A stretch of DNA of 64,000 nt from Escherichia coli (GCF_041886205.1 NZ_CP169029.1), one strand, 5' to 3'; counted from the stretch's first letter, positions 1 to 21,223 are shown. Notes: generated from the letters alone by a model not told the origin. Numbers and translations: made by a program.

Positions 1-289
1 TCACATCTCCGGCGCGGCCATACGCCTCACCAAAGTTGCGATTACCCGAAGCAATAACGCCATGCAGCAACGCCCGGTTATGCTCGTCGTTTAAAAAGCG
101 AATTACCTGTCGTGGCACCGCGCCAGCCGTACCGCCGCCGCCGTAAGAGGGCACGATCAGGATGTAAGGCTCGTCTACCTGAATCCGTTCCCGCTCATTG
201 AGCGGGATGCGCACCGCGGGCAGACCTAAACGTTCGATAAAACGCTGCGTATTTTCGGAGCTGCTGGAGAAGTAGACGAGCTGGCTCAT
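1..289 (-). CDS. nrdI: NrdI, class Ib ribonucleotide reductase flavodoxin-like protein; N-terminal part only, gene runs off the left edge
   Basis: Minus-strand ATG at 289-287 overlapping the nrdH stop; translation [36 protein letters not shown] matches NrdI; nrdH-nrdI synteny. Confidence 0.85.
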
Positions 290-531
290 GCACTGGCCGC
301 GTGTGGCGCTGGATGCAGACGGTTAATCATGTCCGGACGGAAACCAGACCAGCTAAGATCGCCAGCAATCACTACCGGCAACTGACGAAAGCCCTGAGCA
401 CGCAACGTTTCTGCCGCTTCAGGAACGCGATCGACATTAATCATTTCAAAATCAAAGCCCCGGTTTTCCATCGCCCGTTTGGTGGCGTGGCACTGAACGC
501 AATCGTTACGAGTGTAAATAGTAATGCGCAT
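286..531 (-). CDS. nrdH: NrdH glutaredoxin-like redoxin
   Basis: 81-aa ORF with CVQC redox motif ([21 protein letters not shown]...) recognised as NrdH; followed by nrdI. Confidence 0.93.
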
Positions 532-723
532 GATTCGTATTTCCGTTTAAAATGAAGATACGGCGCGATGATACGCGTCGGGTTGTCTCTCTGTTGATAC
601 AGAGATACTAGATGTAGTTGAAAAAAGATTCAACCACACAATATATAGCAAATAGTGGTCGAAATTACCCTGGATATGAGCGTGACGGGGTAGGGGGATT
701 TTTGTGATTCACCAAGTAAGAAG

Positions 724-748
724 AAACCCCGAAGACAGGCTTCGGGGT
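724..748 (-). terminator. Hairpin downstream of ygaM, probable intrinsic terminator
   Basis: Inverted repeat accccgaag...cttcggggt just 3' of the ygaM stop. Confidence 0.4.
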
Positions 749-778
749 CAAAGACGCGTATTTATTATCATTTTTGCA

Positions 779-1108
779 CTACGATTTGCGCATGCTTAAC
801 AGTGCGCCGATAAAAATACCTACCGCAGCTGCTGTACCCACGCTACACCAGGGTCTTTCACGAACAAAAGAATCCGCGCAGCCAACGGCATCGCGTGCGG
901 CTTGCTGGACGCGAGTACGACCATGCATTCGCGCCCTGGTTTCTTTCAGCAATGCCTGAGCTTTACTGCGTGCGGCTTCAGCTTCCCCTTTGGCGTCGCT
1001 GCCCCAGGACTTCAATACAGATTCGAGGCTGTCAGCTAATTGATTGACATCATTCTGGATATCCTGCACGCCATCATCAACGTCGTTGCGGTTCGGTCGG
1101 TTAAACAT
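779..1108 (-). CDS. ygaM: YgaM, DUF883 (ElaB/YqjD family) membrane-anchored ribosome-associated protein
   Basis: ORF 779-1120; start trimmed to MFNRPNRNDV...; C-terminal hydrophobic anchor; synteny with ygaC/alaE. Confidence 0.85.
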   Translation of the reverse strand: MFNRPNRNDVDDGVQDIQNDVNQLADSLESVLKSWGSDAKGEAEAARSKAQALLKETRARMHGRTRVQQAARDAVGCADSFVRERPWCSVGTAAAVGIFIGALLSMRKS

Positions 1109-1259
1109 ATGATCCCCCATTAGAATTCGATGTAATTTTCAGTGTAGACCATAATTTTCTTAACTGAGGTTCATCGCGGCTTTATGGACTTTTCTGAAAG
1201 CGTTGTGAATGCGCAATCAGGTAAGGTAGGCCCGCGGTTGATAATAACGAGGATCAAAT

Positions 1260-1604
1260 ATGTATTTACGACCAGACGAGGTGGCGCGCGTACTTGAAAA
1301 AGTCGGTTTTACTGTCGATGTGGTAACCCAGAAAGCTTATGGTTACCGCCGTGGGGAGAATTATGTCTATGTTAATCGCGAAGCGCGAATGGGACGTACC
1401 GCACTGGTAATTCATCCAACATTAAAAGAACGTAGTTCGACACTGGCTGAACCCGCTTCCGATATTAAAACTTGCGATCATTATCAACAATTTCCGCTCT
1501 ATTTAGCGGGTGAACGTCATGAGCATTACGGTATCCCGCATGGCTTTAGTTCGCGTGTTGCGCTTGAACGTTATTTAAATGGTTTATTTGGCGAAGCCAG
1601 TTAA
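1260..1604 (+). CDS. ygaC: YgaC, DUF2002 family protein
   Basis: 114-aa [20 protein letters not shown]...; conserved position between ygaM and alaE. Confidence 0.85.
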
Positions 1605-1607
1605 AGA

Positions 1608-1632
1608 CGCGACTGGCGATGCCAGTCGCGAA
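1608..1632. terminator. Bidirectional hairpin between convergent ygaC and alaE
   Basis: Inverted repeat cgcgactggcg...cgccagtcgcg between the two stops. Confidence 0.45.
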
Positions 1633-1640
1633 AAGAAGAG

Positions 1641-2090
1641 TCAGGCTTTTACCTGCTGGTAACGGCTGACTTTAAACAGTCGGCGGCAATAATCGAGGAA
1701 GTAGCCATAAACCGCCCCCATCAACATCGAAACAACGATGTTTGAACTGACCGCCGCCATAATCTGATGCCAGTCTGCGCCCACCACTAACAAGATCGCC
1801 ACATACACCGGTGACTGGAACGTCACATAAGCCAGGATATCCGCCAGATTTTTTATCCAGCCCGACGGGCTAACTTTGCGTGCCGCGCGCATAAACAGAT
1901 CGCGGTACATACCGTATGGCCATGCAATTAAGATGTTCACCGGAATCGCTACCAATCTGGAATAAAAAGACTGTTCGAAGCTCATTCCGGAGAGGAAAAC
2001 TTCAATACACATGTTCACGACAGAACAGTAAACAACCATCGCGAACGTATCTGCAACTGCATGACGCAAGCGTGACTGCGGTGAGAACAT
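1641..2090 (-). CDS. alaE: AlaE (YgaW), L-alanine exporter
   Basis: 149-aa hydrophobic [24 protein letters not shown]... recognised as AlaE; synteny. Confidence 0.88.
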
Positions 2091-2649
2091 GCTAATGCTC
2101 CTTAATAAAAGCGTAATGGGATGTTAATGGAGATGAAAGCAGTGGATCTCATTGCCATCTGCATTTTCGCATAGCGTATATCGCTGGCTATGACTAATCA
2201 ATTAGTGAAAAATTTTTATTTAATCAGTTTTTGTAGATAAAATATTCCGTAACGGCTCGTTTTTTGTACATTGTGGATTTTTACATGCCGATATGATTTA
2301 TTTTTAATTAAATCAATTAGATATGGGCTTGCCTCTAATTTCACTAATGCAAGTTTGGGGGTGAGGTAACGCTATAAGCGTAGAGAATTCGGTGTATGTA
2401 GTGGCCGGGTCATTTTCAGCATTTTTTATGCCAGACAATGTACATTAACAGCAGAAAGCACCGGTGATGGATGTTTTCTTTTATTCTGTTATATTGCATT
2501 TTTATTCACTTTGGTTTTGTCAGGCTTGCGGAATTAGCGAGCAGAGAGCGCCGTTCTGTTCACCAATAATCTAAATTACTCATCAAAATGGCTAATATAT
2601 AATCTTGAAATTATTCTGAGAGTTTCAGAAAATAACAGCTGAAATAATC

Positions 2650-5600
2650 TCGCGCAGGACTGGCATACTAATTTTGTGACATATAAGGTACGCCACATCG
2701 ACATCACCAATCAAATACATACTCTTTTTTGTTTTGGTGCTCCAGCTGTTCCAGCACCATGTCCAAATGAAGTTCAGAAGCACCTCCACTCTCCTCTTTT
2801 GCCTGGCCACTGTCCGCTCTCAACTCCTCCATCTCACGTTTGTACGCCGAAGAGTTCCAATGTCGTCATCAGAAGTAACTGGAAGAGCAAGAGAGACACA
2901 CACACACACAGCCAACTGCATAAAAATTACGACTGTGAATGTTATAGTTGTTAATTAGCCGCCTTAAAGTTGAGAGCTTGTTGCACACGCCGTAATAATG
3001 AGGTGTTACGGTTGGCCAAATATAAATGTCATCAGTGAGCGTGCCAGCCCCCAGTGTTGTCAGGCCCGGCACCTGGAGAGCAATTTGCTGAGCCTCTGAA
3101 AGGCAGATCTTTGTCACTTCCTATTCAATGACTCAGGCGCGCTGCATGTGGGTCTTGTTGCTCTCGAGCGGTTGTTTATGGCATCTTCATCCAGTTGGTA
3201 TTCACATAAGTTGTTATTGGAAACAGAGCCCTATAAGCAAGTCCCGTCGAAGAAGAAATCCTGCCATTTAATGGTATAACCGAGACAGCACACGTGCTCA
3301 TTAGATTAACTACTGGCACCATTCTGATCTTGCATTAACGGAAGGTTCAGATTTGAATCACCGGGATGATGGGATCCAGTGGTTTTTCAAGGAATTGAAG
3401 TCCCACTTTCAGTTAGCATTTGTGGCATGTTGGCTCAACGTCACGCCACCACGTGGTGTCACCTTGATGCTGGAGACGATGTAATCTTCAGGGAAGATGG
3501 TTTTTTATGCAGAATGAAGTGAAATCGCCTTCAAGTAATGACCGATGAGCAATCATCAAGTGCGACGAAGATCCATTAAATTCTCGCTTGTGGATCAGAA
3601 TTCTGGCATCATGTGAAGTTGTTGAAACCAATGGGTCTCAGGAAGAATACTTGAGGTGGCGAATACCATCATCTACCGGAGCGGCCAAGAATGTGTTGGC
3701 GATCCCGGTCTGGTCCATAGAACTCTTTCCGTTGCACAGGAGCAAGTTGAATGCGAAGGCACCTTATTTGTGCAATGGTGCACCAGCTTTCGTGCTTGTT
3801 GTATGGAGGAGACTACAAGAACCCAACTTGTTAGGCGATTGCTTCAGGAACAGGAGCCACGCTGTGCGCTTTACAGGGCGCTGAGATTGTGAGTTGAGCC
3901 ATCAAAGTCATTTTAAGCGTTAGTTAAAATCAAGAAAACGAAGGAGAGTTAACAGTACCAGTCAGGCACAGTGTAATGAAATAAGTTAGAAGCTGTCAAA
4001 GACCGGCCAGCCGGAATGAGATCAATGCCCAAGTATAGATATTTTTTCAACAAATTAGTTTAGTAGTTCATAAGGGAGTACATGTGTTTCTGAGAATTGT
4101 TATCACCGATTCGTCGTTAGCCGTAAGGGTTTGTCTGTCAATCATCAAAACATTGTTGACTGCTTGATCTCCTTGTTCATTTTAATGTGTTTTGCTGTGT
4201 AGTCTTATTAGTCTGTGCTCATTCCCGTGTGCACCAACGCGTCATTTTTGCCCACATTTTTCGAAGCGATTTGTTAGTCAGAAGCGATGGTTGTTTAATT
4301 TGTTGGAGACAGAGAGTGAGAGAGCTGTATGTGTGTCAAGGTCAGGGACCACAAGGTGCCATCAGGTGAAGAAGGTGGAGGAACATTGGACAAAACCGGT
4401 ATGTCAGGCATGTCGATGAGCAGAAGGCGTTATATTGAAATTGCTGATTGGCAAAAGCGTTACTGGTGACTGACTGCTGAACGATAAGGGGAGCCAGAAA
4501 CCGTTGCTGGCATTTTGCTGCATATCCAGGTCGATGTTCAGGTAATGCCACAATGCCGCTGCTGATGCCAGTTTAAATCCGTCAGTCCTGCATCTTGAAT
4601 GGGGATTTCCAGCAGCAGGCTTCATGGATAACGCCAGTTGCAGAAACAGATAATCTTCAGCGTAAAGGAATTATGACAAAGGCGCAGACGTTGGCGAGCG
4701 TTGGATTTGCTGAAGAGGTGATCAATGGCTATCGCCTGCTGGATGCGGGAATTGTGTCAGGAGCTGCTGGATTATCGACTGACTGCGCGGTGATCTCGTC
4801 AGCATAATCGCCAGTCAGGTTTGGTCGATCCGTTGAACATTTCCAGATGCCGCATAAAACCAGGTCGTCGAGGAGAATTGATGTAACGTTAATGACAGAT
4901 CCAGAATGCTGGATTTGCAGGGAGATGGAGTCATAGCCCGCCACCATTGCCGGATGAAGCCGATGATAGCATCCACTTTACCGCTATCTACTGCGTCAGC
5001 GCCCAGCCTTAAGCCATAATCCTTTGTTAGGTTGTCTCCCATCATCCCCTTAATTGTGCTAGCACACCAATTGTTTACAGGATACATTTGCTTCCATATT
5101 GTGGGTGTCAAAATATAACGAACATAAGTAGTCTTGCCTTCACAGCCACCCTTGTCCTCATCCTTTTAGCTCCACCACCCACTAGGCTGTTCTTAGAGAT
5201 GGAGTTGTTGTGAGAAGAGTTTTCTGTACTGTTAATGCCAAATGCATATAATGCCAGCAACTTATCCAGATTCTTTATCTGTTAAGATTATTGTGCTACA
5301 CATAATTCTTTTGAATGCTAGAGCCATTTTTGAGAAGGTTGAAACTGTTGATGGGTTACTTTCTTATCATTATTGGAGCAGTGGAAGACCATGAACTTGT
5401 TGCATACACAACCGGTTAGTCTTTTCAATGCAGGACAATCCACTGAGAAGATATAATCGTTGATCGCAAGGAGCCAGTGAAATAGACCTCGAATTGTTTG
5501 GCTGACGAATAGGATCCCATTCCATCATCACCAACAGGAGCCAGCAGCTGATGAGATGTTAGCAGAACCAATGGACAAGCCACTGCAATGAGTGAGTTCT

Positions 5601-8600
5601 CGTTCTTCTGCTCTGGAACAAACTGGAATTGCTAACTGGAGATGGAGGCCAATCAGGAGAAGGAAAAGTGCCAACAGTGGCCATATGCGGAAGCTGTTAT
5701 TAAAATTGAAACACCTCTTGAGTGCGGTGTGAAGTAGTCTACCACCACCAAATCTTAGAAGACCTGGTGGAGGAAGAGAAAGCATCTACCTAGTGTCCGA
5801 CGGCGGCGGATTAGTTGATCACCGGGAGGAAGCATCACCCCTACGTGAAGGGAAGAGGAACGCGACGTGAAGAGGGCCGAGTCGAGGCAAAGTCGACGAC
5901 GTAAGCACATCAAGGTCAATGAGTTATTCTACACTGGAATATGTCCGAGTATTTACTTAGTGAAGAACCAATGGCTTGATCTAGGTTGGTTACCCCCGAC
6001 TAACCAATGACTACACAGGAGAAAGAAATATATAAATAAATAATAATGACAAGACCTTAGCGGTGGCGTGGAGGTTTTTGTTGTTCATTGTGATGGACAG
6101 AGTTCTGCTCATAAGAAGTATGGACGTACACTGTGGTTTAGATCAGGATTTAGTCAGGTTTATTGATAACTGTTGAGCATCTAAATGCCTTTAGGTTGCC
6201 TTACTTCAGCAGTTGCTAGCGGTGATTGTCATCACACCAGAAGAACAGAGCCAGCAAAGCCCAGCCAATGCCAGGTCAGCAGAACTCGGTCGAGTCAGGA
6301 GAAACCATGAGCGAGCGAGGTACTAGTTAGCAATGATGGAATGCCTGGACCAGAATGAGGAGATCATAGTGGTGAGTGTGCTTTCAGTGACAAAACCAGA
6401 GCCAAAACCAACAGCAACTAGCTGATGGCAGAGCCAGCTGAATTGCCTTTGCCGAGTGAAAAAATGGATGGGTGAAACACCCATCCTCAGCATCAAAACC
6501 AGAACTGATGTGTTCTGTGACAGGTTGGAAGATTGGCGTGTAGCTGGTGATGCTGCTGAGGAAGACAAAGAGCTGCCACAGCAATGGCAGAGAGGATGGC
6601 TGCTGGCCACTTTCAGTGGCTTGCTAAACCAGGTGGTTGATCACCGGACCCGGAAGTGGTGCACCAGCGAGATGCCCCACATTTCGCGTCGGGTTAGTGG
6701 TTTAATTTGTTATTTTTTTGCGGAGTGGCTGCAGATTGTTAGGTTGATTCCTGTTGATGAGATTCCACTAGGTGGGTGCAAGCTCATCCAGTCTACCTCA
6801 TCTCGTAGCTGTAGAGTGAGGGATTGTTTTACACCAGTGTGGTGAGCACTTGCTTTGCCTCAGCAGAAACATGGTGATGGATTTCCAGAGACTGATGAAT
6901 TGATGTTGTCCAGGATGCTGAGTGGAGGATGTGAGAGCAGGTTGGAGAAGACGGTCAGAGGAAGAAAGAAATTACTTTATTGTGGTGCAGGCATGGCTAG
7001 CTGGCTTAGTCGTCTGCCATCCTCGATCCATGGACATTGTCCAGCGGCAACGTCATTGCTGTTGCATGCCAGAGGACTCGGTTCTTCAGCTTTGTCCAGA
7101 TTGTCGTCTTCCGCAGACACTTGCTGAGACCTCAACATTTCAGCTAGCCACCCAGAATCGGGTTACGCAGGTGCCCCCCCCCCCCCACATCTTGAGCCAT
7201 GAGAGATCCAGATCATTTTTGCTAGTTGTGATCTAGTGGAGGGGGCGGTTGGCCTCCATCGAAGGCGTGAGATCGGGTGCTAGGCCCCATTGAGTTGCTC
7301 GATGAAGTAGTTGTATGCCGGGCGCCTTGACGTCGCACGTACGGACAATGTCGCCTTGCCGTCACAGTGCCCAGAGCCTTGCGTGTTGTGTAGACGCGCC
7401 TCCGGCGAGCTGCTTGATGATGCATGGGACATCTTTGTGGTGTAGGGCGATCGAAGGGTTTGTGAGTGGCTGCACAACCTGCACCACCGATTGTTGCTGC
7501 AGTGGGTAAGGAGTAGTGGTGGAGAAACCTGGAGGTCAGTGATAGACGATTGAAGGCCAGGTGCACCGACCTTGTCAGGGCGATGGTGCAGGGAGGTGGC
7601 GCTGCTATGTGTGGAAGTGATGGTCGGCGTGTGTTGTGGTGGTGTGGTAATTCTTCAGTCTTACTGCTTCATAAAGTTGTTGTTACCAAGAGCTGTTGTT
7701 TGGTTAATCTGCAATCTTTGAATTTCATAGTTGCATCATAGTTTGTAAGCGATACTCGGCCTGAGCAGGTGTAGCCTTCAATTGTCTGCATGGCCAACCA
7801 CTTTGGATCAAGGTGCCGAATCAAGCACGGTCGCCCGAACGAGACGATGGCCTTGAATCGACGGCACCGGGAGTCTTGGTCAGCAAGTTTGGTTAACCGC
7901 TTCACCAACGAAGGAGACCCTCTCCAACCACGCCGCCACCCAGAGTTCATTGTCTTCTCCACGGCGATTTTTAGTTAATCTATGCATATTTATTTTAGTA
8001 GTTTTCACGAGACCGAACCTTCTCCATGTACCAGTGGAGCCTTTCCAACTAAGTTGCTCACCCATTGAAAAAGAACCCATCGTTGGTACCGATGCCACTT
8101 GTACTCGATGCTTTGCCTTATGCCAGCGGCATATTTATGGTGAGAAATAGTGGAAAACCAAGTTTGGCTGCTGGCACGACACGGCTTCAACGTCAAGCCG
8201 AACAAGTGGGGTGAGGCTGAATGTTTCTTCGACACTTGGCGTTGGCGAACGACGAACCTGCTGGCTGAATGTTTATTTGGCTCACTGCAAAAGCAGCTCT
8301 CTCCCAGGCCACCTGGAGCAGCAGGCCTTCACTCTTTGTCACCTCTCCCAAGCTGGATGGTGAGTGATTCAGCTCACCAACTCATGAGGAATTTTTGCAG
8401 CACAAAAGGTGTGACAGCTGCCGCGACCAATAAGCTGCTGCAGAGACGAAAACTTGTGCAGAAATTGAATTCAGATGAGCTTCCATGCTCTGTTGATTGC
8501 ATTAATCAAGTAACTAAGAAGATGTGTTGCCTCCAGTTTGAGCCGAGTAGTTTGATGGTTTTTACTATACTGTTCAGAACTGGTCAACTTGGTTGTAGCT

Positions 8601-11150
8601 GTAAAGATGAGTTGAGATGCTGCCTTTACCTTTGCACTCATGCTGGTGCGAGCTGTGACCAGGAGACGACGGAAGGCCGTGGAATTGCCAGCCTCACCAG
8701 CTCAGCCAGAAGCTGTGTCTGACGCCTGCTCAGGCCACTGTGGGCTGCCAATGCTAGTTGCTTTCAGACATTGCGCCAGGAATCGATGGCATAATGGTGT
8801 TGCTGGCTCCAGAACAATTAGGTGTATCTCTTCCTCCATGTAACTGTTGCAGAATGTGTTTGCCCTCCAGGAAGACGCTACCCAGACCAGAAGGAAGGGG
8901 TTACTTATTACTCTTGCTTCAGCTGGTACCTGTCCACTTTAGTGTAGACTGATGTCATCAACGAGCAATGAAATGGGTGGCGGAGGCCAGCCAATGAGTG
9001 GGCAAATGCGTTGTGTGTCATAGTGGTTTATCAGCACCATGCACCGAACGTGACCAGCTTGTTGTGGTTTTTGCTATGTTGTGAGGCCGATCACGGCTCA
9101 TCCCCGTCATGCTGTGAAGAAGGACTGTGCTGAAGTTTATTACTTATTTGTCCGAAGGTTATTAATTAGGGTACATGTTCACTTATGTTGTAGACGTGCT
9201 AGGTCGACGAGGACAAAGGAGATGGAGCTGATTGCCAGGCGGACGGTGGAGGAAAACGGACGAGCCCATTGTGATGGCTGGTCACTGTGAGTGAGTGAGG
9301 AAGATTGTGAGGAAAGTGGATGGAGCAGAGAGAGAGAGAGTCCAGTGAGCCCCCAAGACGGTTTGACCTCAACCACTCAGTGGTGCAACTGTTGATCTGC
9401 ACGCACCGAATGAGACAAGACCAGGTGGTTAGGAAATGCTGCACAGAAGTGGTGCGTCAGGATGCATGTTGTGATGCTGCCTCCACCAGTGTGGCCATCA
9501 AACCATGGTGGTGTCAAGTGGTGTTGTAATGGCGCCAGACACGAAAGTGAGGACAAACTGGCTGTTTATTGTTGCAGCACCGCACTCAGCGTGAGCATTA
9601 GGCCAGGAAGAGAGCAGTTACGAGTTATCCATGTTGCCTGTGCACCACCACTCGTCCAGCTGACTGCTTCTGCGTCAGACTATGCCCTTGCCGTAACCGT
9701 TGCCATTGCCGCGACGGAGCCAACGCCACGGAGCCAGCGTCTGCACATTTGTTGTCAACTCCATGTCAAGCGACCCCTCGGAACGGTTGTGACATTTATA
9801 TGCGGTGGCAGTTTGCCGCCGTTCCATTTCAGAGTTCAGGTGTGCGGGCGACAGAGCGACTCCTGATGAGTTGGTCATCAGAGCCATGCTCCCAAAAGCC
9901 ATGCTTTGAGCTGTCACGGGGACACAAATCCTAGGATCAGGCCTCGCCCTGTGTCTTCAGCAGGAATGTCATTTTACAGTACAACTGCAGTCCACCTCAC
10001 CAAAAAAAAATCAGACGCCCATCTGTGACTCATGAATGTTTGTAGTGGTTAGGTTAGGAGAGGCAGCCACCTAGATCATGTGCCAACATCCTTGCTAGTA
10101 AGTGGTTATGTGTGAGACCAGAAGAGGTTGTTAATTCAGAGTCAACTGCTGTAAGCGGTACAGGTAGCAGCTTACTGTTTCTATGTGTTCAAAGTGACTC
10201 ACCGACTAGTTGCTCTTTCTTTCAAATTTTTGCCAACTAACTTTATATACAACCACTCACCATCAGATCAATGATGAAATATTTTGCCGACTTGTGCAGG
10301 CACATCCATGCTATGTGTGGTGGAAGAGTGAATTTAGACAGCAGAAGTCATTGGAGGTCAAATAATCCTCCACGGTACCCTTTACCACTTTATTTTCACA
10401 CCCACAAATTGATGTCACCGGACAGGCCGTCCAATCACTAGGCCAACAAGCCGTTGAAATGTTCTGCCAGCAGAAGAAAATGTAAATATGCCGCCATTGC
10501 ATCGAATTTTAGTGACTGAGTGACCACCGCCTCACCCTAGCTTCACCATTCCTACCGCCTACATCTACAACCACTCAATTCATTAAACAGCCCTTCAGGC
10601 TCAGGAAGTCTTGCAGAATGTGTTGTAATTATCTAATACAATTGTCAAAGACTTGGTGACCAAAATGAAGTGATCCATCAGTTGCCCAGGTATGCATTGT
10701 AGTCAAGTGCCCTGTTTGTGATGTTATATATATATCTGATGAATGTAATAGGTTACACAGCAGAGTTGTGAATCACAGGTTGTTTTTTCAGTGGACGATG
10801 CATTCATGTAGCCATTCTTTTTACTAGATGAGGAAGGGAGCCATCATCATTTGAAGCTAATTTAAAACATCCAAAAATGTACCAGCTACAATTGTTTTTC
10901 ATCGAAAATAGAGGAGTTGAACATTTACAGTAGCCAGAATAAAGTGAGAGGAAAAATGAAATGCAGAAAGACAGGTTAGGCCAAGATACGGTCAAAGAAC
11001 TCAATAACTAGAGGAAACGACACACACCCGCCCTGTTTTAGGGTAATAAAACATGAGATGACAAACAACTGTGTGGCTGCTTCCGGAAATAAGATGCAGG
11101 CCCGAGCCAAGCATACAATTAGATATGTCACAAACGCCTCAACTAGTAGA
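2650..11150. other. About 8.5 kb block with no credible coding potential and atypical composition (approximate boundaries)
   Basis: Only short overlapping ORFs on both strands with low-complexity, Cys/Trp-rich translations; frequent CTAG; simple runs (CA)n at 2896-2910, C13 at 7174-7186, (GA)n at 9326-9340, (TA)n at 10725-10737; no RBS-led genes. Confidence 0.6.
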
Positions 11151-11155
11151 TATGA

Positions 11156-13285
11156 TCAATCAGTTGTGGAGAATCTTGAGGAACGAGAAACATGATCACT
11201 CCCTGAATGATTGATCTCTCTGATGTTGCTAGGTGAGAGGCAACCTCTCAACCTTCTTTTATTTATTATAACTAGTCCATCATGAGGAGAGTGATTAATG
11301 TTCACAGAATCCCCACGACTAAAGGCCAGAACGTTTTTAGTTGCAAATACACCCTCAAATGCGCTCCATATTCCTGCTTTATCTATATATAATGCGTGGA
11401 ATTCATTGTAGAGCTGCTGATAGGTAGAGCAACCTTTATTAAGCCACGCCTCACCGCCGACACGCGTCGACCCATCATCATTTTTAATTTCAGTCGTTGA
11501 TTTTAATACTTGGCCATCCCAGTAAACTAAAGGCCTGCTGAACGGGAGAGCGGCCATATATGCCATTGCTAATTGTTCATCTTGTTGATGGTTAAATAGA
11601 AAGTCATTGAAAAGATTGCCATTGTTAGGAAAATCGTGGTTAATGTTAATCAATATCCGTCTTTTTGATGGGATGCTTGAGATTGTTGAACCCGGTTTTG
11701 ATGCAAGGGTTTGGAGATCGCCACCAAATGAAAAAGCTTTTATCGTCTTCATGAGCAATGAAAAATCAATGGCGCTTAAATCATCTCTTTCATAAAGCAG
11801 CGATGACATTTGTTGTTCATCCAACTGACTAGTTACCAGATATTCCATGTAATTCATAACGGCTTTTTCATGATATTTTGGGTTAAATAAGTTAGTATTG
11901 TGTAATCGCTCATTATAATTTTTAAGCGGTGGGGTTATTGATCTTTCTATTTGTTCATGTTTTGAGTGTTTTGCTGCATCGTAACGTAAACCTCGTACGC
12001 CATATTTTCGCATTTCACGAACGTATTGATTTTGCAGCATAATAACCTGGTCACTTTTGGGGGTTGTTTTAGGCATTCCATTTAAACGCTTTTCTTTTAA
12101 TGCATAGAGGTTTTCCCATTCATCCTTAGAAATATTATCTTTACTTGCTTCGAAGTCTTTTGCAGTGAGATGTATATCTTCTGGATGGATTTGTTTACGT
12201 TCTTTTGTTACTGGATCTATAGTAAATGGAATCAAAACCTGACCTTGCCAATAGCCAGGGATACCACTTTCTATATCTTTACTGATCTTCGCTCGTATAT
12301 CAGTAGAGGGATAATCCAGGTCATTTTTACCACTACCCCCGATTCCCATAAAGTTAAAGGTATAATCAGGAATGATATCGATACCAAATTTTTTAGCATC
12401 TTTAACCAATGCGATAAAATCCTGCAAATCTCCCATTGGATTATGGATGGTACAAAGATCTTCGGGTTGATAAGCGTGAAACCAGTAACCTTTTTCTTCT
12501 TCGGGAGTTTCTGGTCCGTCGGCGCGGAAAGTTGTCACTGGAGGGATTTGTATATACCCATAATGGCAACGTGCAAACTCAGACATATTTTCCCTGATTT
12601 GCTGGTAGGTGGCATTAAAAGCATGAAGAATCGCTTCGCCAGGTTTTTTAGGGGTGATGATTTCACATTGTGATTTCTGAACAGCAGTAAGAGATTTACG
12701 CTCAAGTGTTTGCCGTAGATGTTCTGGATTGATTAATATTTTAAATGTTTCTTGCTGTCCGGAAGGTGACGTCACGTTAATATTATATACATCGGCTGCC
12801 AGCTCATAGTCAGGGATGTTAATAGCATATGCAACATATTTATCTTTTGGGGAGGGTTTTTCAGATATAATGTGGGTGAAATATTCAGCAGGACCATACT
12901 GGTGAACCCCCTTGTTATCTTCTCTTTCATTCATTGTATCTCTTTGATAAATCCATGTTTTTCCTTCTCCTATCCTGTCTGGCGCTGTAATGCTACGCTG
13001 TGCAGCTTTATTCAGTTCACGGTAAGTTGTATCTGGAAAAAGGGAAATTTTATAATCGTTTTTTAACAGATCATTAATGATTTTTTCTGCGTGAAAAGTT
13101 GATATAATTTCTCTGTCTTTTAAATCCTGAGGATAAACTCCACAAGCATTAATAATATTTGTTACACAGTTTAGATATTCTAATGTATTTAATTTGGAAT
13201 TTAGATCCCCGTCAGTAATGTTCCATGATAACAATGTGGGGGTGTCGATAGGTAAATTTCTTGGTCCTGGTTTTATAGAAAACAT
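11156..13285 (-). CDS. ygaQ: Glycoside hydrolase family 13 (alpha-amylase-like) protein, YgaQ-like
   Basis: 709-aa ORF; GVRGLRYDAAKH resembles GH13 conserved region II; lies beside ileY as ygaQ does in K-12; AT-rich; the C-terminal end may be affected by the junction with the anomalous block. Confidence 0.55.
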   Translation of the reverse strand: MFSIKPGPRNLPIDTPTLLSWNITDGDLNSKLNTLEYLNCVTNIINACGVYPQDLKDREIISTFHAEKIINDLLKNDYKISLFPDTTYRELNKAAQRSITAPDRIGEGKTWIYQRDTMNEREDNKGVHQYGPAEYFTHIISEKPSPKDKYVAYAINIPDYELAADVYNINVTSPSGQQETFKILINPEHLRQTLERKSLTAVQKSQCEIITPKKPGEAILHAFNATYQQIRENMSEFARCHYGYIQIPPVTTFRADGPETPEEEKGYWFHAYQPEDLCTIHNPMGDLQDFIALVKDAKKFGIDIIPDYTFNFMGIGGSGKNDLDYPSTDIRAKISKDIESGIPGYWQGQVLIPFTIDPVTKERKQIHPEDIHLTAKDFEASKDNISKDEWENLYALKEKRLNGMPKTTPKSDQVIMLQNQYVREMRKYGVRGLRYDAAKHSKHEQIERSITPPLKNYNERLHNTNLFNPKYHEKAVMNYMEYLVTSQLDEQQMSSLLYERDDLSAIDFSLLMKTIKAFSFGGDLQTLASKPGSTISSIPSKRRILININHDFPNNGNLFNDFLFNHQQDEQLAMAYMAALPFSRPLVYWDGQVLKSTTEIKNDDGSTRVGGEAWLNKGCSTYQQLYNEFHALYIDKAGIWSAFEGVFATKNVLAFSRGDSVNINHSPHDGLVIINKRRLRGCLSPSNIREINHSGSDHVSRSSRFSTTD

Positions 13286-13844
13286 AATAACGTTCCTCTA
13301 ATGGTAGAGTAATATGATGTATACGGAAACATAAAAATGTTTAATTGTTATGAAAGTAATTGCAAACAGATGTCCTATTTTTATCCAATATTTATATGGA
13401 AAAGGATAATGCTTAAATCTGTTTTTTTAATTATCGATGTGGTCTGGAGAGGCAACTGTCAAAAATCGCTCATACGAAACTAATTATTAGCAGAATAAGT
13501 TCTATAAAAGAATATATTGCTATATGAAGTTTATTTTTATGGAGTGAAAAGTAACAGATATCATAATGATGCGAAAACTCTTCAGTTAATGTAATAAACT
13601 TATATTATTAGATACAAAATCATTACAAAGTATCATTGAATCAATGATAACTATAGATAGTGTTAATTATTAACATTTGCTTGTTGACTGCGAGTATCGA
13701 CTTTGCGAATGGAGGCGATGTCGGGTTTTATGTCGCATGTATTGACGACCCAAGGTGAATGGGAACGCATAAAAATCTGTTATTTACATCATAAGATCAT
13801 CATGTTTATTGCGTGGTTTATAAGTATTGTTATTGCATACTTAA

Positions 13845-13920
13845 GGCCCTTTAGCTCAGTGGTTAGAGCAGGCGACTCATAATCGCTTGGTCGCTGGTTC
13901 AAGTCCAGCAGGGGCCACCA
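13845..13920 (+). tRNA. ileY: tRNA-Ile2 (anticodon CAT, lysidine-modified), ileY-type
   Basis: 76-nt cloverleaf ggccctttagctcagtggttagagcaggcgactCATaatcgc...ggggccacca with 7-bp acceptor stem and CCA end. Confidence 0.93.
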
Positions 13921-13928
13921 AATAAAAC

Positions 13929-13970
13929 AAGGACTTAGACAGGAAGCTGGCTAAGTCCTTTTTGTTTTGT
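13929..13970 (+). terminator. Intrinsic terminator after ileY
   Basis: Hairpin ggacttag...ctaagtcc followed by tttttgtttt. Confidence 0.6.
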
Positions 13971-13976
13971 TTCAAT

Positions 13977-14001
13977 CTGGGTGACGTAATGGGTGACGTA
14001 A
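13977..14001 (+). repeat. Tandem GGGTGACGTAA motifs at the tRNA-proximal island end; possible integrase arm-type or AlpA binding sites
   Basis: tgggtgacgtaatgggtgacgtaa; the same motif recurs at 33759-33804 next to the integrase start. Confidence 0.45.
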
Positions 14002-14036
14002 CTCAACTATAGGTGCCGTAGTCAGGGAGATTTAGC

Positions 14037-14831
14037 ATGAGCTTTAAGGATAAAGTTGAAGAGAAAAAAATGCGCCGTATGGCCCGTCCCCCTGAGTTAA
14101 CGGTAAAGGACTGGATTAGCCTTTATGATCTTCTTCGTTCAGCCAAAGCTCAAGACTCAGAAGCCATGTACGAAGACTTCGCCTCTGTGCTGTTAACTAC
14201 CCTGTCGGTTGAGCATCATCCGGAACTATACCGCCTGGACGGAAACAAACTAAACGCTGTTGCCGATGACCATTTTGCCTGGGACCTACTATCCGCCCCA
14301 ATGAAAGGGAAAATGTCCCCTGAAGAATTGGCGAAGCGCCCGAAGACCCTTTCCCAACTTCTTTGTATCTACGATGAAGATATCAGTAACGACGAGTCAC
14401 TTCGTACACATGGCTTCTTGCGTGACGCTATTGCCCCTATCCTCGATTTCGAGCTTCTGGATAGCATCGAAGATGAGCCTGACTACAAAGAAAAATATTT
14501 CGAGTTGCTAGCAGCGCAAAAGCACTCGACTCCCCCGCCACTAAGAGGGGAAAGTTATGCTATCAAACGAGAAGAGTTGCTGATCACAGCCCTTGCGGTT
14601 ATCTCTCAAAATCAAAGAGACGCTAATAAAAAGGTCGTCCCAACAGTTACTGAACTTCTGAATCAGATAGAAAAACATGCCTCTGCGTTCTGGCCTCACA
14701 GTAAACAACTTCCGATGTCTCGTGAGAATGCTTCTAAAGAGCTAGGCTTCGCCTTACATCTTTTAGAACAACCAAATCAGAATATTGAATTTCTTCGGGA
14801 AGCCAAAAAAGCAAAAAGAAAAAGTGCATAA
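14037..14831 (+). CDS. Hypothetical protein (264 aa), island-encoded
   Basis: Clean ORF with acidic helical composition and a lysine-rich C-terminus; no motif recognised. Confidence 0.5.
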   Translation: MSFKDKVEEKKMRRMARPPELTVKDWISLYDLLRSAKAQDSEAMYEDFASVLLTTLSVEHHPELYRLDGNKLNAVADDHFAWDLLSAPMKGKMSPEELAKRPKTLSQLLCIYDEDISNDESLRTHGFLRDAIAPILDFELLDSIEDEPDYKEKYFELLAAQKHSTPPPLRGESYAIKREELLITALAVISQNQRDANKKVVPTVTELLNQIEKHASAFWPHSKQLPMSRENASKELGFALHLLEQPNQNIEFLREAKKAKRKSA

Positions 14832-14963
14832 AAAGAAATAGTTACAAAAGGTACCCAGTAATCTTCAGGAAGGTACACGAGAAATATACCGTTCAGTTTG
14901 ATTAACTCCGTTCAGTTTCAGCTTTCACCACCAGGAGTTATTCAATTGAAAAATAAACCAACC

Positions 14964-15167
14964 ATGTCTGATAAGGTTGTCGCCCTTCATCAGCCCCAAC
15001 GTCTGATTCGCATTGATACAATGCTTCAGCTCCTCGATTGCAGTCGCACCACCCTCTACCGCTGGGTTAAAGCTGGCATTTTCCCACAGCCGATAATGCA
15101 TGAGGGCCGAACCGTAGGATGGCCAGCCAATACGTATCAATGCTGGCTTGAGCAAAATAACAAGTAA
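14964..15167 (+). CDS. AlpA-family phage transcriptional regulator (Prophage CP4-57 regulatory protein-like HTH)
   Basis: LIRIDTMLQLLDCSRTTLYRWVKAGIFPQPI matches the AlpA/MerR-like HTH pattern; start trimmed from ORF 14898 to MSDKVVAL. Confidence 0.65.
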   Translation: MSDKVVALHQPQRLIRIDTMLQLLDCSRTTLYRWVKAGIFPQPIMHEGRTVGWPANTYQCWLEQNNK

Positions 15168-15272
15168 TTCTGTTTGTTAAAGGGCTGAAATATTCAGCCC
15201 TTTCTTCATCTGACAATGAAACAAACTGGAACAAAAACGATTATTTTCACCTATTCTGCGACATGCTAAAAC

Positions 15273-16589
15273 ATGAGTAACTCTCTGATTAATCAAGTAA
15301 CAAAGCCCTCACCTGGTCAGGAACTCACCTCGGTATTTAATACTATTACGCCCGATAAGCCTGGCAACCTTGTTGAATATCAGCCAAAGGGAACGTTTGT
15401 TTTCAAAGAAGTGATGTGGTCTGTGCTGCCAGAGAAACGCAACCAGGACACGAAGATCATGAAAAGAATCTTCGGGGCAGTTGACAAGGTATCAGCGATG
15501 TCTCGCTTTCTTGCGGTCAGATATGATTTTCGGCTCCCGACCTACAGTGCGGATAATCGCATAATGGATGATTTCCATAATTTACTTTTCCGCCAGTTAA
15601 GTAAGAACTACCCAAAATCGTTTATCAGCTATCTTTGGGTAAGAGAGCAGGGCTCAGGGGAAGCACAGCATTATCACTATTTGTTGATGCTGGATGGCAA
15701 CTATATCCGTTATCCAAATAAGCTGAATACGATTGTCCGACATTGCTGGGAACAGGTTGCTGGTGGTTCGGTATGGTTCCCGGAAAACGGTTATTACTTT
15801 GTGAGCGAAAATGATCTCAAGACCTATACCGAATTGATGCTGAGAGTTAGCTATCTGGGTAAGCGCCGTACTAAAGAGTCAATTGATAAAGGTATCAAAC
15901 TTTTTGGCTCAGGCATGCGCAAACCGAAACCTGTCGCGCCTTCACGCCAAAAGTCTGCAATAACACCCTGCAAGCCAATCAACCAAAAAGCGGAGACGAA
16001 AACCAACGATCAGGATATGACGTTGAAATCCACCTACTCAGGAATGTTGGACAAATATTTTCTGGGCAAAGCCCGATTACCCGCCGTTCTGCGTAAACGT
16101 TCATCCTATGAACTTTATGACGAAAATAAATGGTGGTGTAATTCACCACGTTGGTCCGGCCATCGTCATAACTACGTGTTAGAGGCTCTGATTACTGGGA
16201 TCAGCCTTTCTGATTACGCACGCAAGTACAAGTTGAATCCAGTACGGGTATATGCAAACTGTCGCCGTGTTGGGGGGCAAAGCCTTAAAATTATTCACTG
16301 GGCATGGCATCGCTATTGCTTCCAGAAAAGCAAATCCACACAGGATGACTACATTAACAATCACCGGCTGAATCATAAAACAGCTAAAAAGCAGTTACGG
16401 CGTAAACCAATGAGCTCTCACTGGAGCCAGCACTTTGATCGATATTATCAAAAGTACTGGCCGAAAGGCTGGACTGTGGCCGACTACTGCCGTGAACACA
16501 ATCTGGTCGCCAGCACTGCCAGACGTTATATAGTCGATTTTCCATTTATAGGCCTGATAGACCCGTTCTTGTTGAAACCATGGTTATAG
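15273..16589 (+). CDS. YfjJ/YagK-family protein (inovirus Gp2-like), probable HUH-type replication initiator
   Basis: 438-aa ORF with HUH-like motif QHYHYLLML; AlpA-adjacent position as in CP4-57 yfjJ. Confidence 0.5.
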   Translation: MSNSLINQVTKPSPGQELTSVFNTITPDKPGNLVEYQPKGTFVFKEVMWSVLPEKRNQDTKIMKRIFGAVDKVSAMSRFLAVRYDFRLPTYSADNRIMDDFHNLLFRQLSKNYPKSFISYLWVREQGSGEAQHYHYLLMLDGNYIRYPNKLNTIVRHCWEQVAGGSVWFPENGYYFVSENDLKTYTELMLRVSYLGKRRTKESIDKGIKLFGSGMRKPKPVAPSRQKSAITPCKPINQKAETKTNDQDMTLKSTYSGMLDKYFLGKARLPAVLRKRSSYELYDENKWWCNSPRWSGHRHNYVLEALITGISLSDYARKYKLNPVRVYANCRRVGGQSLKIIHWAWHRYCFQKSKSTQDDYINNHRLNHKTAKKQLRRKPMSSHWSQHFDRYYQKYWPKGWTVADYCREHNLVASTARRYIVDFPFIGLIDPFLLKPWL

Positions 16590-17176
16590 AGATGAAAACA
16601 CCATAACAGTGTCACCTGGTATACTTACTGAGCGCGGCGTAACTTAAATATAAACACTTAGCCGCCATCAGTAAGCAGAGCCTTATCAACACTACCAGGG
16701 AATTATTGTGCAGCATGATAGCTGAGGTACCTCTCAATTCTTGACGGACATTAACGCACAGACAACGCTGATTACCTCCTGTAAGCCAATTTATATCTGC
16801 TTGCTGCCACATATCCGCTGGGACTAATCCCCTTTAAACACCTTTTACTTCAAAAAAATGTTTTCCTTCTGATTTATCCCATACGCGAAATAATGAAGAT
16901 TTTATTTTAATTACTAATACTTTCAATGAGATAAGATGCATACATTCTTACACTCATATGATCACTTTTATTTTTCTTTTAATATCAACACGTTATGAAT
17001 TGATCAGCACAAAAGTCACTGCAGGGGGTTAGCTGATTGAACGTTTCAGTTCGTTTCTAATGGCCACATATAGATTCACATCAAGAACTAGTGATCACTG
17101 TAGGGTAACGGTATGCCCAGATCAGCCTGCAGGGTATTCGCTGCGGATGACATGAAAAACAAAGACAGGGGATTGC

Positions 17177-17824
17177 TTACGGGTCAACAAACACACTGAT
17201 GGGGAGGTTAAACCGGCGCGCAAGTGCTCGCTTGTGATCCAGTGTTAATGTGCAATCCCCTTTCAGGATGCGACTCACCAGAGATTTATTACCAATCTCT
17301 TCTTCAAAATCGCTCTGAGTCAGTTTGTGCTGATCCATCAGTACGCGCAGTAAGGCAACACCCGTTGGGACCGCTGCAATACGGCTATTAAATTCAGCAA
17401 ACTCCGGCGCTTCATCTTCATACTGACCGATTTTCGCAACCAGAATATCCACCAGCGGATGGTCCGGCTCGTGTTCAATCAGATACTCGACCAGAGCCAG
17501 TGCATCTTCACTGTGGAAGCGTACGACTGATGTATAGGTAACATTTTGTTCAGTAATATATTTCATGGCTGCCAGTAAGTAGGAAGCTTTGAAAGTCACG
17601 TCCTGATAGTCCTTAGCTAACAAACTCCCATTCTCTTCAAACCGTTCAACAAATGCTGCAACTTCTTTTGGATCGATACGGCTGGTTTTATCTTTTCCGT
17701 TTCGAACAAACAGCTTTTGTTCTTCAGTATATAGCGTAAAAGGTACCTTCCTTGCCCCAGTAGACAGTTCAACTGGTTGGGAAAAAGACTCCAACATTAA
17801 ATGATAGAAATCTTTATAAGTCAT
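17177..17824 (-). CDS. Protein with C-terminal XRE-type helix-turn-helix and uncharacterised N-terminal domain
   Basis: C-terminal LTQSDFEEEIGNKSLVSRILKGDCTLTLDHKRALARRFNLPISVF resembles HigA/XRE HTH; immediately downstream of the McrC-like gene. Confidence 0.55.
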   Translation of the reverse strand: MTYKDFYHLMLESFSQPVELSTGARKVPFTLYTEEQKLFVRNGKDKTSRIDPKEVAAFVERFEENGSLLAKDYQDVTFKASYLLAAMKYITEQNVTYTSVVRFHSEDALALVEYLIEHEPDHPLVDILVAKIGQYEDEAPEFAEFNSRIAAVPTGVALLRVLMDQHKLTQSDFEEEIGNKSLVSRILKGDCTLTLDHKRALARRFNLPISVFVDP

Positions 17825-17913
17825 GATTACTACTCCCTCATCATTTTAGCACTCAAGAAAATACATGATGTGGTTGATTATCCGGTTGATAATTATGAAT
17901 CGTCATCGTCTCA

Positions 17914-19215
17914 TTACGGGGAAAACAGGGGGAAGGACGATTGCCACTCACCTTCCACTAATGCCCCTGATTCAAGCTCGAAGGGCACACACCAGAGCGA
18001 TAAATGTTTATCAAAATGGAACACTGGCAACGGAGTATCAAAAAACTGATGACGTGGATATATCAGCATCATATTCCCCTTCCCTTGCAGATATTTTTGC
18101 CCATAAGCGAACATCTGATACAGATCAGCCTGGTTAATTTCATACTTTCTCAGGCTGTTATCAGCTCGGCTGTCTAACAGCTTCCATTTGGCATCCAGTA
18201 CCATTACCTGCTCACCTGTGATGAGAAAGTCAGGTTTAAGCATGAACCATTGTTGAGGAGCCCTTTCGCCAGCAGGTACATGATCTAACAAATAATGACG
18301 TTTTGCCTGCTCAATAAGCTGATAATCCCTCAGCAAAGATAAAGCCAAACTGCGCCCCACCCAGCATTCATATAATTTTTCCATCGGGAACAACAGCGAG
18401 ATCCCCTGATGCAACCCATGCTGAAAATCTGGATTCAGTTTTTCCAGAATAAGTTGGCACCATGGCTTGATGGCACGATAAGCATAGAGATATTTACCGT
18501 TGCTCCATTGCGCCAGAGGCTGCGTTGTACTGCCACAAATTGGCTCTATACCGTCCAGTTGGTGGCTCAACGTGTTCGCCTGTCGCCAGCTCTGCCCCTC
18601 TTTGGTCATTTTAAGCACCCAATTCAGGGCCGTACGTAACAGACGGTTTTCAACTCGCTGAGGTGAAAACTCCGCATAACGCACATGAAAGCGAGCATCT
18701 CTACCAGGAGGCTGTCTCATTTGTGCCGTGATGTTCAACTGACCACGGATAAAAGCGCTGTGCTCATCCTCAACAAGGTGGTAGTCGAACCGCAACCCTT
18801 TGTGTACCAGTTCGGTAAGATGCCGCAAGAACTCGCTGAAAATCCACTCATGCATCGGCTGGTTGCTCCGCTGCAATGCAGCCTGATTAACTTCTCGGGG
18901 TGTAATCCCCAATGAAGCGCTGAGCATTCGACGTAAAAGCTGACGCAGGGGGATTATCTCAGTTGGCGCTTCAAATGTGGTTTTGGGCAGAATTTCAATT
19001 GACTCGCCATTCGGGGATTGTAGATAACCGACATAGCTTCCCAAACGCAAAAACCGCTTCCCTTCTCGGCTGAGAATTTGAGAGGTACCACTCCACTTTT
19101 GTTGCAATTGCTCAAGCCAGGAAAAGGTTGCCTCAGAGACAATTCCCAAATCCATACTGGCTGTTTGAGAACTATCACAAGTCAGCAGAGCATATTCCCG
19201 GACCTGGATCATCAT
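17914..19215 (-). CDS. McrC-like PD-(D/E)xK nuclease subunit
   Basis: 433 aa; C-terminal PDF...VLDAKWK catalytic-type motif; start overlaps the stop of the upstream McrB-like gene. Confidence 0.7.
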   Translation of the reverse strand: MMIQVREYALLTCDSSQTASMDLGIVSEATFSWLEQLQQKWSGTSQILSREGKRFLRLGSYVGYLQSPNGESIEILPKTTFEAPTEIIPLRQLLRRMLSASLGITPREVNQAALQRSNQPMHEWIFSEFLRHLTELVHKGLRFDYHLVEDEHSAFIRGQLNITAQMRQPPGRDARFHVRYAEFSPQRVENRLLRTALNWVLKMTKEGQSWRQANTLSHQLDGIEPICGSTTQPLAQWSNGKYLYAYRAIKPWCQLILEKLNPDFQHGLHQGISLLFPMEKLYECWVGRSLALSLLRDYQLIEQAKRHYLLDHVPAGERAPQQWFMLKPDFLITGEQVMVLDAKWKLLDSRADNSLRKYEINQADLYQMFAYGQKYLQGKGNMMLIYPRHQFFDTPLPVFHFDKHLSLWCVPFELESGALVEGEWQSSFPLFSP

Positions 19216-21194: not shown

Positions 21195-21223
21195 TTCCTA
21201 CACCACTCCTTGATGAAAAAGCG

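Follow-up and report, generated by a model that had tools for sequence, protein, structure and literature searches.

Decay of bacterial pseudogenes is characterized by a deletion bias and by enrichment of G:C→A:T changes, and the sequence described here is qualitatively reminiscent of it. The phase-variable loci of Haemophilus and Neisseria possess repeat tracts whose range of lengths includes C13 and (AG)7. Nanopore sequencing errors follow the order deletions > mismatches > insertions, and in read orientation A↔G exchanges stand well above transversions, whereas C↔T exchanges do so only slightly; modern nanopore reads carry 5–8% error (PMC8486125). Long-read assemblies produced by layout only retain the error rate of the raw reads in the absence of polishing, and reads of the junk or "glitch" kind occur (PMC6966772).

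The window, that is, the whole stretch of DNA analysed, comprises 64,000 nucleotides of an Escherichia coli assembly (GCF_041886205.1, NZ_CP169029.1). Near its beginning is found a corrupted block (2663..11257, no strand assigned) of approximately 8.6 kb, which lacks any long open reading frame and appears as a collinear, error-laden copy of the native sequence, shortened by about 15%. The left flank (1..2662, no strand assigned) is intact and contains nrdI, nrdH, ygaM, ygaC, alaE, and the alaE–stpA spacer; its identity is 100.0% to LHM10-1 and CP52E and 99.96% to 6EVA. Both flanks are 99.96–100% identical to other strains, up to position 2662 and from position 11258, and the noise ends abruptly at either edge of the block. 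Comparison with strain 6EVA reveals that these edges are base-exact and that they ignore gene boundaries; position 11257 is the last difference, a C→T change, beyond which the sequence is identical to the native one.

The native sequence replaced by the block measures 10,164 bp and is found, for example, in NZ_CP138428.1 at 3333828–3343991. It begins upstream of stpA, continues through ygaP, ygaV, yqaE, kbp, csiR, gabP, gabT, gabD, lhgO, and glaH, and finishes within an amylase gene, of which it takes in the last 221 nt (3′-end). Eleven genes are lost to the block, all of which are dispensable. The amylase gene, a ygaQ-like member of the alpha-amylase family (11156..13285, minus strand), retains native codons 1 to approximately 676 and then enters the block; the chimeric product possesses an unrelated tail and consists of 709 amino acid residues, as against 750 in the native protein. 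Within the block all six frames contain stop codons at the density expected by chance, and codon periodicity is absent. Outside the block the window is occupied by an integrative island that is natural and internally consistent, and a defence-associated Drt1a reverse transcriptase gene is found at 28311–32135, some 17 kb from the block.

The relationship of the block to the replaced interval is evident from tiled comparison. The best matches of 300-nt tiles are collinear from block position 57 (native 58) through 8279 (native 9775), and all of them are on the same strand. Global alignment of the two sequences gave a score of 2599, compared with −289 and −332 for shuffles, and a column identity of approximately 58%; about 41% of the alignment columns differ, and a calibrated simulation indicates that about 47% of the bases in the block have been altered. 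The errors comprise 2,132 deleted bases, 1,759 mismatches, and 559 inserted bases, with indels mostly of 1–2 nt, and at this level of identity and with this number of deleted and inserted bases all reading frames are therefore destroyed. The best-preserved remnant (4360..4825, plus strand) corresponds to the 3′-ends of kbp and csiR; it is approximately two-thirds identical to the native sequence, contains many 1–2-nt indels, and has a local alignment score of 112 against 22 ± 2 for shuffles (blastn E = 8e-8). A tblastn search of the block with 12 native proteins recovered a sole, marginal trace, that of Kbp (31% over 80 amino acid residues, E = 0.011). The possibility that the block is a reversed or shuffled form of the native interval was considered and rejected, since the reversed interval, like the rest of the window, aligns with the block no better than chance. 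Judged by these alignments, the block is evidently a garbled, collinear copy of a stretch of eleven ordinary genes native to E. coli and not foreign DNA.

Database searches with the block itself were negative. Neither megablast searches of E. coli genomes (5,426, all complete) and plasmids nor a blastn search of phages returned a match; this outcome is uninformative by itself, because a copy of approximately 58% identity offers no 28-nt seeds. An Rfam scan (E ≤ 1) revealed no family, and a search for mobile-element signatures was negative for long internal repeats, terminal inverted repeats, and target duplication. The longest open reading frame of the block (190 amino acid residues) has no match in a homology search, and the chimeric amylase and three block open reading frames are absent, on exact look-up, from a collection of 15 billion proteins in which the native AlaE, included as a control, was found. 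None of the 5,426 genomes presents an intermediate state of the locus.

Four simple-sequence tracts in this block had been reported by the first-pass annotation, and all are present. Two of them lie exactly where they had been placed: (AC)7A at 2896–2910 (15 nt, plus strand), which is directly preceded by (AG)3 at 2890–2895 to form a compound tract, and C13 at 7174–7186 (plus strand), which is G13 on the minus strand. The existence of the other two stands, with small corrections to their limits. The (AG)7 tract spans 9327–9340 (14 nt, plus strand), its start having been set one base early, and (TA)5T spans 10725–10735 (11 nt, plus strand), two bases short of the end originally given as 10737. 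Further tracts, absent from that list, are an A9 run at 10002–10010 (plus strand), (GTGA)3 at 9287–9299, and (ATAA)3 at 6032–6043.

As ordinary E. coli background we took approximately 353 kb, consisting of seven fetched loci and the window outside the block, and used a published review (PMC7015867) alongside. Tracts of unit length 1–2 and at least 10 nt number four in the 8.6-kb block and none in the 55.4 kb that make up the rest of the window. At a threshold of at least 11 nt the count of mononucleotide and dinucleotide tracts is again four in the block, with none in the seven loci (297.5 kb); the longest in the background loci are a 10-nt (GT)5 in 23S rDNA and a 10-nt (GA)5. The enrichment is significant by Fisher's test (p = 5e-6, calculated with a 173-kb subset of the background). 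The great rarity of such runs, remarked upon earlier, is thus borne out for E. coli, none of at least 11 nt having been found in the approximately 353 kb, and the frequency of tracts in the block is far too high for this organism. Nor does the dinucleotide composition of the block account for the excess, because three tracts of 13 nt or more are observed where a first-order Markov null fitted on the block's own sequence predicts 0.002.

Alignment also reveals what the native sequence was at each of these positions. The sequence under (AC)7A is GAAGAAGAAGAACAGCAGCAGCG, in which period-3 repeats became period 2, and that under C13 is GGTGCCGCCCAGACCGC, a C-rich stretch which has been smoothed to a homopolymer; the change from GCCGCCCAGACCGC to C13 illustrates how native sequence has been turned into simple repeat. 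The native counterpart of (AG)7 is non-repetitive and the tract arose de novo, that of (TA)5T is TGTTTGGTCGTCTGTTCGG, which is not a TA repeat, and that of the A9 run is CCAATAATCACAAAATCA. Native sequence thus collapses locally into homopolymers or dinucleotide repeats and then regains register.

The substitution spectrum is strongly asymmetric. On the plus strand C→T (13.5%) and T→C (7.7%) exceed G→A and A→G (4.8% each); read on the minus strand these become G→A at 13.5% and A→G at 7.7%, with C↔T at 4.8% in each direction and transversions at 3–7.7%. Even at palindromic dinucleotides the damage is one-sided: CG→TG was observed 176 times against 38 for CG→CA (p = 2e-22), and change of the T in TA 154 times against 33 for change of the A (p = 7e-20). 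The noise depends on the preceding minus-strand base only, that is, in one direction. The 4-mer content of the block correlates with that of its own reverse complement at 0.38, compared with 0.73 for native DNA, and strand symmetry is violated by the observed/expected ratios for GG (0.78) and CC (1.13). The corresponding ratios are 0.59 for CpG, 0.60 for TpA, and approximately 1.39 for CpA/TpG. Fitting a context-free mutation channel to these data yields predictions of 1.12 ± 0.035 for CG against the observed 0.59, 0.94 against 0.60 for TA, and 1.00 against 1.38 for TG, as well as 0.003 tracts of at least 13 nt against three. The errors are also bursty: the standard deviation of identity per 250 columns is 0.044, compared with 0.022–0.027 in stationary simulations of equal mean identity, and 20 exact-match runs of at least 10 are found where such simulations contain 4–8; match runs as a whole have a nearly geometric length distribution that ends at 14. 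A simulator of random mutation at independent sites was tried and rejected, failing on the CG, TA, and TG odds, the tract counts, and the over-dispersion. Neither a double-stranded DNA process operating in the cell nor a simple random-mutation model reproduces this pattern of damage.

We consider it very probable that the block is not real DNA of this organism and that its tracts are artefacts. Since they are located in a garbled copy of native sequence, the tracts themselves are most likely a data artefact; the first-pass annotation had offered artificially generated sequence or assembly artefact as an alternative, and this is essentially where the evidence points. As to the kind of artefact, we favour, with a probability of about 0.5, an uncorrected readout of the minus strand, of nanopore type and very low accuracy. 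The minus strand would have been read sequentially, as a single strand, at very low accuracy, the likely source being a stretch of nanopore-type long read, real or simulated, such as the "glitch" region of one read. This bad stretch would then have been put into the assembly layout and missed by consensus and polishing; it could escape polishing because at approximately 58% identity other reads fail to map, while the flanks were polished perfectly. Where the signal was poor the basecaller presumably reverted to its learned sequence prior, which would explain why CpG and TpA are avoided and TG/CA is in excess, as well as the (CA)n, (GA)n, (TA)n, and poly-C tracts. We found no published description of CpG and TpA avoidance or of de novo dinucleotide runs in basecaller junk. 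Overlappers normally would not use sequence so rich in errors. It is likewise unusual for an otherwise perfect assembly to contain a lone stretch of 10 kb left unpolished where the sequence is unique and non-repetitive.

The main rival to a sequencing readout is that the block was made computationally and spliced over the native interval, either as a simulated or perturbed decoy or as a re-rendering by a neural or language model, with the simple repeats representing the degenerate repetition loops typical of generators. We regard this as a serious possibility at somewhat less than even odds. It would suit the base-sharp edges that are blind to gene boundaries, the absence of the block from all public collections searched, an error level implausibly high for a real assembly, and the collapse of native sequence to repeats followed by a return to register. 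The preceding-base dependence in one direction resembles a generator that proceeds from left to right under a prior poor in CpG and TpA, and suits such a generator just as well as a long read. Particular forms of this proposal are less well accommodated. A simple independent-site simulator is excluded by the context dependence, the creation of tracts, and the over-dispersion; a free-running generative model would lose collinearity over 10 kb and miss the register at the far boundary; and token-wise masking or infilling would leave many long exact runs, whereas those observed are nearly geometric and do not exceed 14. The natural and coherent island that makes up the rest of the window also speaks against a generator, and both the order of deletions, mismatches, and insertions and the A↔G bias on the read strand fit a physical sequencing channel.

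Explanations that accept the block as genuine DNA fare worse. Decay or hypermutation in situ, whether by pseudogenization, a targeted deaminase, or re-copying by an error-prone polymerase or reverse transcriptase, with tracts arising by slippage, would be in keeping with the native homology, the deletion bias, the enrichment of G:C→A:T changes, the dispensability of all eleven lost genes, and the presence nearby (28311–32135) of a defence-associated reverse transcriptase gene. We nevertheless judge it very unlikely. Approximately half of the bases are changed between flanks of 99.96–100% identity with base-sharp transitions, and time-dependent decay is on this account impossible; replicated double-stranded DNA cannot maintain a one-sided spectrum at palindromic CG and TA; some 25% indels are not a product of deaminase or reverse transcriptase mutagenesis; and an intermediate state is present in 0 of 5,426 genomes. 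A specific version, in which the 10 kb from stpA to glaH was re-copied in vivo by an error-prone, deletion-prone single-strand polymerase or reverse transcriptase, conceivably tied to Drt1a of the adjacent defence island, and recombined back, is barely plausible; were it true, it would constitute a locus-wide "scrambled" copy with newly made microsatellites. The depletion of CpG and TpA, the CpA/TpG excess, the random density of stops in six frames, the lack of 3-base periodicity, and the (CA)n, (GA)n, and (TA)n motifs would all suit a foreign, eukaryote-like insertion or contaminant with ordinary microsatellites, a reading raised by the first-pass annotation. The likeness proves superficial: homology to the native E. 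coli interval extends collinearly over the whole block, its k-mer content is strongly strand-asymmetric, and it has no Rfam family, no homolog of its longest open reading frame, no terminal repeats, and no target duplication. Eukaryotic CpG decay is moreover excluded because double-stranded genomic decay, in which CG→TG and CG→CA should be similar, cannot give 176 against 38. A eukaryotic origin thus merits next to no credence, and the same is true of the proposal that these are genuine contingency (phase-variation) tracts in a new accessory region. Although C13 and (AG)7 are long enough to slip and of phase-variable size, no intact open reading frame or recognizable promoter context surrounds the tracts, they are found in no other E. 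coli genome among the 5,426, which leaves no length polymorphism between strains, and they fall inside native genes that have no repeat there. The suggestion that they are hypermutable slippage tracts could apply solely to genuine DNA, which this is unlikely to be, and the tracts are associated with neither an intact open reading frame nor a locus conserved among strains.

If accepted as it stands, the block might be reported as a transfer from a eukaryote, a large non-coding region, or a set of new hypermutable tracts, all of which would be wrong. Recognizing it as a garbled copy guards against stpA, the gab operon, glaH, and lhgO being wrongly reported as lost, keeps a truncated-amylase protein and spurious open reading frames out of databases, and flags the source assembly for re-polishing. 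Artefacts of this type can be sought elsewhere with the same tests, namely by aligning tiles to the syntenic interval of a sister strain and checking that they are collinear, by looking for one-sided damage at palindromic CG and TA, and by simulating with a fitted channel.

By comparison with known systems, the block shares with eukaryotic microsatellite DNA its motif types, including a compound (GA)(CA) tract, the depletion of CpG and TpA, and the excess of CpA/TpG, but differs in its homology to stpA through glaH, its one-sided depletion, and its unequal GG and CC ratios (0.78 and 1.13). With phase-variable loci of Haemophilus and Neisseria it has in common short, slippable mononucleotide and dinucleotide tracts, whereas those of the block are neither in nor upstream of a functional gene, are unconserved, and are embedded in sequence that probably is not real itself. 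Like an eroded pseudogene it displays homology to former genes, destroyed reading frames, net loss (8.6 kb from 10.2 kb), and G:C→A:T changes, yet its divergence is base-sharp between flanks of approximately 100% identity, single-stranded, and directional. The error level of approximately 41–47% exceeds the 5–15% typical of raw nanopore reads with current chemistries and is far above the 5–8% of modern ones, and an exceptionally bad read segment or early chemistry would be needed. In its other properties the block resembles nanopore error: it is collinear with the true locus, deletions outnumber mismatches and mismatches outnumber insertions, and A↔G exchanges dominate in the minus-strand orientation. 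It likewise resembles unpolished long-read segments in its strand-specific errors, its low-complexity miscalls, and its perfect flanks where polishing worked.

Four simple repeats lie within a block of about 8.6 kb (2663-11257) that lacks a long ORF: (AC)7A at 2896-2910, directly after (AG)3; C13 at 7174-7186; (AG)7 at 9327-9340; and (TA)5T at 10725-10735. The first-pass annotation had listed all four, starting (AG)7 one base early and making (TA)5T 13 rather than 11 nt long; an A9 run (10002-10010) and two tetranucleotide triplets in the block were absent from its list. Its claim that such runs are very uncommon in E. coli is borne out. The block has four mono- or dinucleotide tracts of 10 nt or more and the remaining 55.4 kb of the window none; for 11 nt or more the count is four versus none across seven E. 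coli loci (297.5 kb in all; Fisher p = 5e-6 for the 173-kb subset), so that no similar repeat density was seen in either. Three tracts reach at least 13 nt, where a first-order Markov model fitted to the block predicts 0.002. In K-12, tri- and tetranucleotide repeats do not exceed 5 and 4 units, respectively, and A/T accounts for 93% of mononucleotide repeats (reviewed in PMC7015867). The file thus does contain the tracts, and for E. coli they are highly unusual; we consider it highly probable (about 0.9) that they are by-products of ordinary genes having been rendered in corrupted form, and not a real genomic feature.

The window originates from the E. coli chromosome. Several strains match positions 1-2662 (nrdI, nrdH, ygaM, ygaC, and alaE) and the sequence that starts at 11258 (with a ygaQ-like amylase gene and a tRNA) at 99.96-100% identity; megablast found no match for 2663-11257 in 5,426 complete E. 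coli genomes, plasmids or phages. Strain 6EVA has 10,164 bp between these flanks, against ~8.6 kb here; its interval holds stpA, ygaP, ygaV, yqaE, kbp, csiR, gabP, gabT, gabD, lhgO and glaH, together with the final 221 nt of the amylase gene. Sensitive blastn of the block against this native interval reveals ordered though weak matches, and local alignment of block-relative 1698-2163 with the kbp/csiR junction scores 112 (shuffles 22±2). When the block was cut into 300-nt pieces and each was matched against the native interval, the best matches were collinear end to end (block to native: 57→58, 588→651, 1699→1882, 3673→3962, 5481→6065, 7823→9205, and 8279→9775), none being on the opposite strand. 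The global alignment scores 2599 (shuffled blocks, -289 and -332), with 6,273 matches, 1,759 mismatches, 2,132 deleted and 559 inserted bases (58.5% column identity), the indels being mostly of 1-2 nt. Since this ordered, collinear similarity reaches both edges, where it jumps to ~100%, the block is evidently a shortened, heavily corrupted copy of the native interval. Protein-level survival is almost nil, the sole trace being Kbp (31% over 80 aa, E=0.011).

Coding character has been lost. The 3-base periodicity signal is 10 versus 145 in the native interval, and stop codon density is at the random-sequence level in all six frames. The block has a GC content of 47%, with CpG o/e of 0.59, TpA of 0.60 and CpA/TpG of ~1.39; relative to the native interval C is down 32% and G 15%, and CGCG falls from 89 copies to 8. 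CTAG rises from 1 copy to 26, abolishing its avoidance in E. coli. Unlike the CpG/TpA loss, this gain is explained by plain randomization, because a fitted context-free channel, which mutates the native sequence at independent sites at the observed error rates, predicts 23±5. No Rfam family was matched in the block and no terminal repeat of it was found. The amylase gene (11156-13285, minus strand) is cut short by the block, giving a product of 709 aa (native 750 aa) whose C-terminal tail is unrelated, and would, as it stands, be wrongly annotated as a new variant or a pseudogene. Neither this chimera nor three block ORFs have an entry in a collection of 15 billion proteins, in which the AlaE control was found; no homolog of the block's 190-aa ORF was found.

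The corruption is one-stranded. C→T stands at 13.5% versus 4.8% for G→A, base retention is 0.73 for A, 0.63 for T, 0.62 for G and 0.51 for C, and the 4-mer spectrum correlates with its own reverse complement at 0.38 (native control, 0.73). CG became TG 176 times versus CA 38 times (p=2e-22), and TA dinucleotides lost T 154 times versus A 33 times (p=7e-20); any process in replicated double-stranded DNA must affect both partners of these palindromic dinucleotides equally. On the minus strand this amounts to G→A after C and A→G/C after T, context dependence being limited to the preceding base. The C13 tract corresponds to native GCCGCCCAGACCGC, and (AG)3(AC)7 to (AAG)3AAC(AGC)3 with one base lost per repeat unit; the native sequence beneath (AG)7 and (TA)5T is non-repetitive. 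The tracts form through collapse of the native sequence, and the copy is back in register after every tract.

The principal rival explanation is that a computational generator or perturbation made the block, as its sharp edges, absence from databases and directional first-order context would allow. Independent-site simulation fails on context dependence, tract creation and over-dispersion: the fitted channel gives a CG o/e of 1.12±0.035 (observed 0.59), TA of 0.94 (0.60), TG of 1.00 (1.38) and 0.003 tracts of 13 nt or more (3). The noise is also bursty: in stationary simulations of matched mean identity the SD of identity per 250 columns was 0.022-0.027 (block 0.044), and exact runs of 10 or longer numbered 4-8 (block 20). 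Base composition does not account for this identity profile. Free-running generative models are disfavored because the block remains collinear and finishes in register, and token-wise infilling by near-geometric match runs. Collinear alignment with the native interval rejects foreign DNA. The eukaryote-like character suggested earlier describes the superficial composition of the block but not its origin, which is a corrupted native copy; eukaryotic insertion is rejected by homology to the host locus and one-sided CpG loss. Contingency loci are dismissed since the tracts lack gene context and conservation, and natural pseudogene decay by the pristine flanks and sharp edges. It is very improbable that the locus was genuinely re-copied in vivo by an error-prone process.

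The window is otherwise clean and natural. An integrative defence island of ~20 kb (13924-33979) is inserted at the 3′-end of the tRNA gene (13845-13920) and bounded by att repeats, exact direct repeats of 50 bp (13874-13923 and 33930-33979). ARAGORN calls the tRNA Met (anticodon CAT) and RefSeq labels the identical gene tRNA-Ile; it is presumably of the lysidine-modified ileX/ileY type, the conflict being a naming discrepancy, not an anomaly. On the island are a gene with a YagK/YfjJ domain, McrBC-like genes, the R, S and M genes of a type I R-M system, Drt1a, a defence reverse transcriptase-nitrilase of full length (28311-32135; PADLOC 1396 bits), and, adjoining attR, a tyrosine integrase (32429-33838, minus strand). 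Identity to strain GDSC2227PM is 100.0% from 13900 to ~28300 (99.8% over local alignment 12027-28369); that strain is 100% identical over the left 14.4 kb of the island and has IS1 in place of the Drt1a-plus-integrase segment (28300-33912). Megablast matched this segment in none of 5,426 complete RefSeq E. coli genomes, and this cargo is therefore rare in the species. Positions 39001-64000 hold ypjA, a GC-rich segment at 42-45 kb that includes a primase-helicase-like ORF of 777 aa, tmRNA (53333-53695), then smpB, recN and ffh. Since the best complete genome covers only 80% of this region, in 4 pieces (95.9% identity), further island mosaicism near ssrA is indicated.

Of low biological interest, the block serves as a quality flag. 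Its pattern is that of a sequential readout of a single strand, anchored to a signal and subject to a learned or physical context bias, not that of in-cell evolution. The best account is that one long read, real or simulated, contributed a segment of very low accuracy to the assembly layout; layout-only assemblies retain raw-read error without polishing, and junk and glitch reads are recognized (PMC6966772). We infer that long reads were used and that polishing failed here: the segment would have escaped correction, because nothing maps onto ~58%-identity sequence, while the flanks were polished to perfection, and a basecaller prior may have produced the CpG/TpA avoidance and dinucleotide runs. 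The main difficulty is an error of ~41-47%, far above that of typical raw reads. In nanopore reads deletions outnumber mismatches and mismatches insertions, with A↔G, in read orientation, at 3-5x the transversion frequency and C↔T slightly elevated (PMC8486125); if taken as a minus-strand read in reverse complement, the block matches this pattern exactly. It behaves like an uncorrected long-read error stretch, sharing three defining features but differing in the magnitude of error.
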